The notes under the pieces are model-generated. The model was not told where the DNA came from and ran no database searches. It saw only the letters and a program-made list of their open reading frames with translations. A DNA stretch of 10,488 bases. Source: a virus. Lineage: Duplodnaviria; Heunggongvirae; Uroviricota; Caudoviricetes. This document shows positions 1,235-1,975 of this stretch, piece by piece. The position numbers were made by a program, and so were the translations under genes. Every line of letters starts with the position of its first letter. Position 1 is the stretch's first letter. Location: the IMG/VR virus record IMGVR_UViG_2534681663_000022, one strand, 5' to 3'.

Positions 1235-1975
1235 TTAGTGTGCCACTACATTGGGTATGGCGTTATCAACAAAGCCGAGGCCTCCATATTCCGGCTCGGG
1301 TTTACCATCTCTGGAGGCCTGTGCCGCAGCCTTATCGAATTCTGCAATATCACGCCACTGGTAGAGATGATTCTCGCCCCAGCAATAACGGCAGTTAACA
1401 CGGCGAAATTGTGCCAACTGATTGGGGTCGGCCTGGACAATGGCCATCAACTGGCTCACCAGTAAATCCAGGTCTGCGGTATAGCGTTTCTGGTACTGAT
1501 TGCGGAAGTAGCTGATAGCACGATAAACCCTGGCATTTCTAAGCATACGGCTGGCGTTGCTGTTAGCTGTCGCACCTTGCCCCTCATAACCAGCCAGTCG
1601 GTATGCCTCTGTCGGCTTTTTCCCCTGAGCAACCAACATGGCGAATTTTGCCTGCTGGTCAGAAATACCGAATTCATCGGGGCAGAACGAAATTTCTTCC
1701 GTGTCCCCCTCAATCAGGAGTGCATCGGATACAGCCTTTTTTTTCTGAGATTTTCCGTTCTGCCTTTGCGCAGTCTGCGCAGTTTTTTTTCGCGCACTTT
1801 TTTGCGCAGTTTTGCGCATTTCTTTCTGCGCATTTTTCGGAGTTTTTTTGATGTAACGACGGGCTGTTGCGTAGTTCAGTCCCCTTGCTTCACACCATGC
1901 CACCGGAGATATACCGGAGCGGGTGTATTCAGCAATATACTCCTGCTGCAACGCCCCCCAGTCCGGTCTGCTCAT
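1235..1975 (-). CDS. Phage terminase small subunit (N-terminal HTH, Lys-rich linker, Terminase_2-like core); 3' end interrupted by the IS insertion at 1250
   Basis: ATG at 1973-1975 is preceded by AGGA. The segment [48 protein letters not shown] matches the small-terminase signature. The last 5 codons (1235-1249) and the stop lie inside the IS terminal repeat, so the native C-terminus is replaced. Confidence 0.75.
1767..1833. repeat. Array of six palindromic (T/C)GCGCA hexamers interleaved with T-tracts inside the terminase small subunit gene
   Basis: TGCGCAG at 1767, 1776 and 1803; CGCGCAC at 1791; TGCGCAT at 1813 and 1827. T-runs at 1783-1790, 1798-1803, 1834-1838 and 1843-1849. On the coding strand this is the [16 protein letters not shown] linker. 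Confidence 0.5.

Follow-up and report, generated by a model that had tools for sequence, protein, structure and literature searches.

The viral record IMGVR_UViG_2534681663_000022 (Caudoviricetes) raises the question of why a gene for a small terminase subunit (TerS) should carry, inside its own coding sequence, a dense cluster of the hexamer TGCGCA. The stretch of 10,488 nucleotides analysed here, referred to as the window, has its genes on the minus strand, among them a terS cut short by an insertion sequence (IS), and the core array of hexamers occupies positions 1767-1832, nucleotides 144-209 of terS, in a segment that encodes a Lys/Ala/Gln-rich linker. This array is kept at the DNA level, independently of reading frame, of the linker protein sequence and of neighbouring genes, and its sequence covaries with a single residue of a predicted helix-turn-helix (HTH) domain at the N-terminus of TerS. 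The array probably consists of iterated cognate sites for this HTH domain and would then form the recognition part of the packaging site (pac) of a phage that packages by the headful mechanism.

The hexamer array and its persistence in homologues

The array comprises five copies of TGCGCA and one degenerate copy, at the position of which close relatives carry a perfect TGCGCA (Table 1), with start-to-start spacings of 9, 15, 12, 10, and 14. A preliminary description of the locus had reported six palindromic hexamers, 9-14 bp apart, alternating with T-runs inside a terminase small subunit gene; the six-copy cluster with T-runs of 4-8 nucleotides is confirmed, one spacing is 15 and lies outside that range, and the CGCGCA copy is not palindromic. 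The assignment of the gene was borne out by matches to Pfam Terminase_2 and PHROG 51 and by 93% identity to annotated terS. The number of TGCGCA hexamers in the whole window is ordinary (6 against 4.1 expected, just one of them outside the array); their clustering is unusual, with five copies in 70 bp (Poisson estimate ~7e-8), and among 1000 first-order Markov simulations the largest cluster held 3 copies and arose once only. The motif cluster is unique in the window and in relatives of 35.5 kb, 16.7 kb, and 46.4 kb, and a de novo repeat scan found no comparable repeat cluster upstream of terS.

On the coding strand, the array reads AAT GCG CAG AAA GAA ATG CGC AAA ACT GCG CAA AAA AGT GCG CGA AAA AAA ACT GCG CAG ACT GCG CAA, such that the hexamer encodes Ala-Gln (GCG CAR) four times and, in a different frame, Met-Arg once (ATG CGC, at 1813), the frames in the window being 2, 1, 2, 2, and 2. 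Resampling of the window codons gives a mean of 0.62 hexamers compared with the 5 observed, a number reached in none of 20000 resamples. An extended coding-strand consensus, aaaa-C-TGCGCA-AA, was obtained from 52 sites in 11 diverged arrays.

Protein similarity served to gather homologous loci, the sources being species genomes, phage records, viral contigs, and metagenomes. The preliminary description had proposed such a comparison, with an eye to linkers kept and hexamers lost, and the opposite was found: relatives at 40-55% protein identity, from Superficieibacter, Serratia, Buttiauxella, Klebsiella, and soil and gut metagenomes, have unrelated linker peptides and 3-7 copies of TGCGCA at the same place. 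The peptides encoded by the hexamers are S-AQ, T-AQ, MR, and CA in Buttiauxella and TAQ, TAQ, PAQ, LR, TAQ, and CAE in Klebsiella ST974-OXA48phi18.2, and hexamers are also retained in TerS proteins with unrelated cores, the copy number ranging overall from 3 to 10. In a codon test on 20 diverged representatives, in which the protein was held fixed and synonymous codons were resampled from the usage of the gene itself, 0.3-0.9 hexamers were expected in 19 of the 20 (3.4 in Pasteurella Pmp11) compared with 3-7 observed, with P <= 0.003 in all 20 and <5e-5 in many. A larger set of 104 non-redundant arrays from genes whose third helix reads ARRY, which includes loci found through the motif itself, was used for frames and spacing only; here, the hexamer occupies at least two reading frames in 92 arrays and all three in 25, is missing in one, and has a median spacing of 12 bp, mostly in multiples of 3.

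These data bear on the simplest account of the array, also raised in the preliminary description, in which the repeats simply reflect a low-complexity Lys/Ala/Gln linker; codon units would have multiplied through replication slippage or duplication, and there would be no function at the DNA level. Such an origin would agree with the low complexity and predicted disorder of the linker, with spacings that are mostly multiples of 3, and with copy numbers that differ by whole ACT GCG CAG units among close relatives (loci L079, L080, and L081). Nevertheless, one and the same array encodes the hexamer in two or three frames, the hexamer survives in homologues that have lost the linker sequence, it exceeds the codon-preserving expectation, and it switches with residue 39 in helix 3 of TerS (see below). 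This account is rejected as highly improbable because selection at the protein level cannot yield the mixture of frames, the persistence, the codon excess, and the residue-39 switch.

Phased A/T tracts that bend the DNA had also been suggested in the preliminary description. A-tract bending was dropped as a conserved component on account of the hexamer spacing (median 12 bp, multiples of 3) and of an Aeromonas array with almost no long A-runs; the A-runs of enterics largely follow from Lys codons. Outside the hexamer itself, conservation is confined to a short flank, a-rich-C-TGCGCA-AA.

Loci without the N-terminal domain of TerS give a further view of the array. Relatives in Acinetobacter (L010, L011) and Moraxellaceae that match the TerS core only have neither the N-terminal domain nor a repeat cluster in terS, and F116 and Bcep22 likewise match only the core. 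In Rac-SA53 (L002, 6570-6663), annotated as a "gpO-terS fusion by deletion", the junction lies inside the hexamer array, as also seen in L142; the HTH is lost, 2 hexamers are intact, and three others have point changes. The decay in Rac-SA53 lends weak support to the idea that the constraint on the hexamers may depend on the N-terminal domain.

The recognition helix of TerS and its covariation with the array

AlphaFold2 places helices at residues 6-20, 24-31, and 35-41 of the N-terminal domain (116-sequence alignment; pLDDT 86-89 over residues 11-40), and helix 3 has the sequence YATARRY, encoded at 1853-1873, with the Arg39 codon at 1859-1861. Past residue 40, the pLDDT drops to 64-50, and a linker of ~55 residues with low confidence follows from about residue 45; the linker-coding segment (Table 1) is given as containing the span 1737-1850 singled out in the preliminary description. 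A full-length AlphaFold2 model of a 99%-identical protein (pLDDT 47, usable for domain layout only) has pLDDT <50 at residues 55-97 and 75-87 at residues 100-160. The Terminase_2 core is the site of the canonical DNA-binding domain of the family; its Pfam match is stronger in relatives (5.9e-29 in L181), and a full-length relative matches the PHROG 51 terminase small subunit with an E-value of 2e-76. Foldseek matches of the N-terminal domain are weak (E ~1), and all are HTH DNA-binding domains. The domain is found in 302 clusters at 50% identity, and the best 150 listed nearly all match at the N-terminus. A profile search with the 43-aa domain against a set of 5.8 billion proteins gave only short or truncated proteins; these added depth to the alignment, whereas the census of the domain is that of the 302 clusters.

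Residue 39 of helix 3 covaries with the array. In a non-redundant set of loci retrieved by protein similarity only, all 48 with xxARRY helices have 3-7 copies of TGCGCA and none of TGCGAA, and all 12 with xxAKRY helices have 4-7 copies of TGCGAA/TTCGCA, often as the palindrome TGCGAATTCGCA, and none of TGCGCA. Since position 37 is T or S whichever the class, residue 39 is left as the sole consistent difference, and its counterpart in the hexamer is base 5. The same correspondence was seen across the hosts Escherichia, Klebsiella, Yersinia, Providencia, Pasteurella, and Aeromonas and across TerS cores: Arg-type as well as Lys-type arrays accompany Terminase_2 cores and cores lacking a Pfam match (RothC, Pmp11, phiARM81mr), and the array-bearing terS always adjoins the gene of the large subunit, terL. 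Peptide signatures counted in 150 representatives at 50% clustering agree with this covariation, the 92 ARRY representatives having AQ 296, [LMV]R 89, CA 26, AN 10, CE 2, and SQ 21 and the 12 AKRY representatives having AQ 5, [LMV]R 10, CA 0, AN 23, CE 3, and SQ 12.

Some Lys-type domains are identical to Arg-type domains over residues 1-34 (34/34) yet share only 13-17 of 34 residues with other Lys-type domains, and the residue-39 rule is not a mere clade marker because identical residues 1-34 go with a differing residue 39 and a differing array. In two viral contigs, L373 and L234, terS has 98% DNA identity between the ATG and about nucleotide 106, with unrelated sequence upstream; past this point, helix 3 (AKRY vs. 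ARRY), the arrays (TGCGAA vs. TGCGCA), and the cores all differ, which places a mosaic breakpoint between helices 2 and 3. The correspondence suggests a simple code in which Arg39 would read a C:G pair, and Lys39 an A:T pair, at position 5 of the hexamer. The pairing of Arg39 with C:G at position 5 fits, because Arg commonly reads guanine.

In five further N-terminal HTH groups of the TerS family, this position is taken by other motifs, one per group and again in several frames, namely GGGGCA/TGCCCC, GGTACGCA/GTGCGTACC, GGTTCGC/GCGAACC, CCGTCC/GGACGG, and TTTCCAC/GTGGAAA; the copies in these groups are arranged direct then inverted, and a second distant cluster was not seen. In an unbiased scan of loci of 3-7 kb for the 150-nt segment richest in repeats, that segment fell at +80 to +160 from the terS ATG in 17 of the 18 loci that have the N-terminal domain; in the 5 loci that lack it, the segment fell outside terS. 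Searches were also made in the reverse direction, from motif to protein: among 80 viral contigs examined that have three closely spaced copies of TGCGCA, 58 carry the array just downstream of an xxARR[Y/H]IK helix. At least one further hit (L188, 1982-2584) encodes a TerS of 200 aa whose N-terminal HTH is of another kind (..STLRKRIASGGW), carries a TGCGCA(C) array, and adjoins the gene of a 563-aa TerL. The reverse search with TGCGAA was unspecific, the helix being absent in 111 of 120 hits, most of which resemble unrelated tandem repeats; where TGCGAA arrays are associated with an HTH, the position equivalent to residue 39 is Lys in 9 of 9. Similar arrays with other partners were also seen in the viral contigs L312, L334, L356, L375, L396, and L407, and several contigs have copies of GTGCGAACC, some of them followed by inverted GGTTCGCA, reminiscent of one other motif group.

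A different reader of the hexamers was also considered, either a host factor or the ParB_N protein encoded two genes upstream of terS (Table 1), whose family binds iterated or palindromic sites. Arrays of the same motif, however, occur both with and without ParB_N homologues, or homologues of the adjacent TET-associated-glycosyltransferase-like (TAGT) protein, in the 0.5-3 kb upstream (local tblastn), and a locus with a 62% identical ParB_N protein and an 81% identical TAGT protein has a completely different motif. A host factor is opposed by the coexistence of Arg-type and Lys-type arrays in the same host genera, and there is very little probability that either of these is the reader.

The array could instead act in the terS mRNA, where hairpins formed by palindromic or direct-plus-inverted copies would adjust the rate of translation or, with the help of the A-runs, favour frameshifting or slippage during transcription. 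Three 6-bp hairpins can form between neighbouring hexamers (z = -2.0; 8 of 200 shuffles fold as well), an in-frame heptamer lies downstream of the array, and many database proteins are frameshifted in the linker. The z-score is nonetheless marginal and expected of any set of palindromes, the Pasteurella Pmp11 array has only direct TGCGAA and no TTCGCA, so that such hairpins are impossible, diverged relatives do not have the heptamer, and the array region matches no Rfam model. Compensatory changes would moreover be allowed in an RNA helix, whereas the hexamer is the same all the way from Escherichia to Aeromonas and follows a residue of the protein; a role at the RNA level seems most improbable. 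The heptamer, A AAA AAG, is a slippery sequence of the dnaX type, in frame at ~1743-1751 (minus strand) just past the array, and the -1 frame stops 8 codons on. Programmed -1 frameshifting at this site was rejected, since the heptamer is kept in close relatives only and the frameshifted database proteins may be homopolymer errors or decayed prophages. Very many of the database proteins with the N-terminal domain are fragments of 45-76 aa in which the linker is read in a shifted frame, which suggests that frameshifts in the A8-A9 runs of the linker are frequent, whether real or sequencing errors.

A candidate packaging signal compared with known systems

The frame-independent retention of the hexamers, their excess over the codon expectation, and the residue-39 covariation support the proposal of the preliminary description that the array is a candidate terminase-binding or packaging site. 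We infer TerS binding, a role in the initiation of packaging, and the position and direction of cutting from the covariation and the gene context. The sites would occupy the tolerant stretch of terS that encodes the disordered linker, from ~10-25 nt past the codons of the recognition helix. TerS would oligomerise through its Terminase_2 core, such that several HTH domains on Lys-rich linkers of ~55 residues could occupy 4-7 hexamers spaced ~9-15 bp, and weak single contacts would sum to a specific complex of high avidity. This complex would mark the phage DNA as the recognition part of pac and recruit a Terminase_6-type large subunit (TerL), with a cut nearby and headful packaging toward terL, at lower coordinates in the window.

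The array lies inside the terS of a terS-terL-portal module, in which relatives have terL directly next, followed by the portal gene, and which in these relatives encodes a Terminase_6N/6C TerL, a DUF4055 portal, and a Mu-F-like protein. Such a module is consistent with headful packaging, without being proof of it; we take a module with a DUF4055 portal and a Mu-F-like protein to resemble the headful modules of the SPP1 type, and F116, the core-only relative, is a generalized transducer.

A regulatory function was considered as well. TerS could bind the array through its HTH as a roadblock or operator that limits expression of terS and the late operon, packaging then starting from another signal. 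All the covariation data would fit this equally well, the direct-then-inverted layout of the other motif groups resembles operators, and the array falls within the gene that opens the packaging operon, 130-210 nt from its start. On the other hand, TerS proteins are known as packaging-recognition factors and pac lies inside terS in P22, SPP1, and P1 (PMC9611059, PMC10028697), 4-10 iterated sites together with a multi-subunit ring suit recognition by avidity better than a simple operator, and no promoter is involved. Autoregulation in place of packaging is thus unlikely, though less so than the by-product, RNA-level, and other-reader accounts; the two functions are compatible and may coexist.

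Several points weigh against the reading of the array as a TerS recognition site in pac. What the covariation proves is a shared constraint on helix 3 and the array and not what the binding is for, since autoregulation would leave the same signature; the two elements are also neighbours and so inherited together by linkage, and the independent Arg/Lys switches may be few. Hexamers are gained and lost among close relatives (copy number 3-10), so that no single site is essential, and the gene in the window is broken. Neither the Arg nor the Lys group of the N-terminal domain has a Pfam match, a match to an IS66 TnpA-like family being below threshold. Specific recognition by TerS is also not the rule, since the DNA-binding domain of the canonical Terminase_2 proteins of SPP1 and SF6 binds weakly and non-specifically (PMC4737164). 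A description of the array, of the extra domain, or of the covariation was not found in the literature searched, and this search was limited and is no proof of novelty.

Among characterised systems, the pac site of phage P1 is the closest analogue in layout, with iterated hexamers inside the gene of the recognition subunit (pacA). We know of no relation between PacA and the present TerS, and Pfam and PHROG scans of TerS turned up Terminase_2 and PHROG 51 and no PacA family, these scans including no direct comparison with PacA. In P1, about seven TGATCA/G hexamers within pacA are bound by the pacase, and synonymous recoding lowers packaging (PMC10028697, PMC11260489). The P1 hexamers contain the Dam site GATC, whose methylation regulates cleavage, and form two clusters (4 + 3) that flank an IHF site and the cut site, whereas the window has TGCGCA in a single 66-bp cluster, GATC is absent from 1737-1850, and there is no sign of control by IHF or methylation. 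The P1 literature examined mentions no covariation of helix and site, which is a feature of the present TerS family.

The small terminase of SPP1, G1P, belongs to the same core family as the present TerS (Terminase_2, PF03592). Further points of likeness are that the pac of SPP1 and SF6 covers the promoters and the start of terS, has direct repeats in AT-rich DNA with interspersed GC pairs, and serves headful packaging (PMC4737164, PMC9611059); recognition in these phages, however, is not accounted for by the box repeats (PMC4737164). Its parts pacL, pacC, and pacR, with boxes a, b, and c, span the promoters and the gene start, whereas the present array begins at about +140 inside the gene, and the present family has an extra N-terminal HTH on a long linker and a clear residue-to-base correspondence.

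In lambda, cosB consists of R1-R3, copies of a short site, some of them inverted, which are bound by the N-terminal winged HTH of gpNu1 to position the large subunit; it lies upstream of Nu1, beside cosN, and serves the cutting of cohesive ends. The likeness is that several short sites are read by the N-terminal HTH of a small terminase; the sites here differ in lying inside the gene, the module looks headful, and the Pfam scan gave Terminase_2 only and no Nu1-type family. The subsites of lambda cos are named in one source (PMC4669245).

P22 and Sf6 also have the recognition sequence within the terS coding region of a headful enterobacterial phage (PMC9611059). The pac of P22 is a single asymmetric 22-bp sequence in terS, and binding in vitro could not be measured (PMC9611059); the present site differs in being iterated and in lying beside the codons of the domain predicted to read it. 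A pac inside terS is therefore already known, and what the present family adds is an unusually legible specificity code.

A limited literature search on the motif, on the phages, and on the pac of Rac-like phages found nothing relevant. Mapping of pac from the ends of phage records was abandoned, the vB_EcoS records being in-silico prophage predictions and SPF_0923 running into host genes. This Salmonella phage record (L184, ON032529), a 35-kb "complete phage genome", starts in the lysis region, has trkG-terS-head-tail genes, and contains at 28143-35262 the chromosomal genes sitABCD and those of universal stress protein F, outer membrane protein N, and pyruvate-flavodoxin oxidoreductase. It looks like a prophage late region with flanking host DNA, arising either by in-situ or lateral packaging or as an assembly or prediction artefact.

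The orphan site in the window and proposed packaging specificity in the family

The closest DNA matches of the window are E. coli and Salmonella prophage records (93% identity) in which the gene is annotated as terminase small subunit, and its 726 nt of terS match the terS of a Shigella flexneri locus (L004) at 100%. Intact relatives encode a TerS of 363-364 aa, followed directly by terL, portal, and head genes. Here, the gene is cut after codon 242 at the terS/IS junction (1249/1250), with loss of its 3' third, and the open reading frame (ORF) as read reaches a stop at 1235 in IS sequence (ORF 1235-1975, minus strand). The IS, annotated as an IS3 family transposase in E. coli genomes, has transposase ORFs at 1-747 and 867-1214 (minus strand). 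Because the IS truncates terS, the prophage is packaging-defective. Its array, though intact, is an orphaned relic within a broken terS, and it could therefore act in trans only, on behalf of a phage of matching specificity type that is co-resident or infecting. Window positions 1-2000 are covered to at least 80% in only 13 of 5426 complete E. coli genomes, of which the 8 listed cover them as two pieces spanning 3.4 kb, and the exact terS/IS junction may thus be rare. A match to the Rfam isrC sRNA model lies inside the IS (1060-1182, 150 bits).

Four invariant cysteines (NCRYCWGE ... PDCPKC) were seen in TerS homologues down to 41% identity, corresponding to residues 195 and 198 (window 1382-1393) and to residues 245 and 248, beyond the truncation. 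They suggest a zinc-binding site in the TerS core; we know of no such cysteine or zinc feature in small terminases of the SPP1 type.

The remaining genes of the window are listed in Table 1. Carriage of trkG is typical of Rac-like lambdoid prophages. The ORF immediately upstream of terS is kept (45-68% identity) in lineages with differing array motifs, and its product may be an accessory packaging protein. The ParB_N and TAGT genes, which overlap and lie upstream of terS (2166-3885, minus strand), recur as a pair in Serratia, Superficieibacter, and metagenome loci (63-81% identity); the ParB_N protein is also similar to a PHROG DNA methyltransferase family, over the N-terminal part of the latter, and the pair may be a DNA-modification module beside the packaging genes. 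The two ORFs with TolA C-terminal domains sit between the Q-like antiterminator and the lysis cassette.

Table 1. Positions of the array, the terS segments, and the other annotated features in the 10,488-nucleotide window
Feature	Position	Strand	Basis or remark
IS3-family insertion sequence	1-1249	minus	rve, HTH_21, HTH_Tnp_1 matches
terS, truncated	1250-1975	minus	first 726 nt identical to intact 364-aa terS
Terminase_2 (PF03592) core, TerS residues 122-219	1319-1612	minus	Pfam E 1.5e-5, at gathering score
Linker-coding segment, TerS residues ~45-100, Lys/Ala/Gln-rich	1676-1843	minus	hosts array and A-runs; predicted disordered
T-runs	1737-1744 (T8), 1783-1790 (T8), 1798-1803 (T6), 1810-1813 (T4), 1833-1837 (T5), 1843-1849 (T7)		
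TGCGCA	1767-1772, 1776-1781, 1803-1808, 1813-1818, 1827-1832	plus	plus-strand coordinates
Degenerate copy CGCGCA	1791-1796	plus	TGCGCG on coding (minus) strand; one-base variant
N-terminal HTH domain of TerS, residues 1-44	1844-1975	minus	AlphaFold2 prediction
83-aa ORF	1979-2230	minus	matches middle of PHROG 309 "terminase small subunit", E 8e-23
TAGT protein, 318 aa	2166-3122	minus	PHROG 842 "beta-glucosyl-HMC-alpha-glucosyltransferase"
ParB_N protein, 264 aa	3091-3885	minus	Pfam
trkG	4023-5498	minus	
Holin, lysozyme, Rz	5618-6848	minus	
Two tandem ORFs with TolA C-terminal domains (131 + 142 aa)	7043-8017	minus	
STnc100 sRNA	8128-8314	minus	Rfam model match, 87 bits
Q-like antiterminator	9060-9602	minus	
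YbcO	9599-9889	minus	
DUF1367	9889-10488	minus	

For the window itself the result is modest, the site being intact and terS broken by an IS. For TerS recognition of the pac type more generally, binding in P22, Sf6, SPP1, and SF6 is weak or non-specific, and a 2022 review regarded the mechanism as unclear and controversial (PMC9611059; PMC4737164). In the present family, specificity would be legible from sequence alone, in the form of a dedicated HTH, 3-10 sites right behind it, and a correspondence of one residue to one base. The motif groups suggest at least seven putative packaging-specificity types (TGCGCA, TGCGAA, GGGGCA, GGTACGCA, GGTTCGC, CCGTCC, and TTTCCAC). It is conceivable, though given somewhat less than an even chance, that specificity resides in a portable cassette of ~150 bp in terS, made up of the recognition helix together with its iterated sites; one recombination event could then switch packaging specificity. 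Were this so, an orphan array in a defective prophage, such as the present one, would offer any helper phage of the same type a ready place from which to transduce adjoining host DNA at high frequency, and satellites could exploit the same sites.

If the array is indeed the site recognised by TerS, the position of pac and the direction of lateral transduction would become predictable for a prophage TerS family of 302 clusters, seen in Escherichia, Shigella, Salmonella, Klebsiella, Yersinia, Serratia, Providencia, Pasteurella, and Aeromonas. Such sites would provide compact orthogonal packaging signals for the engineering of phagemids and transducing particles, and the exchange of packaging specificity among mosaic phages would have an explanation.

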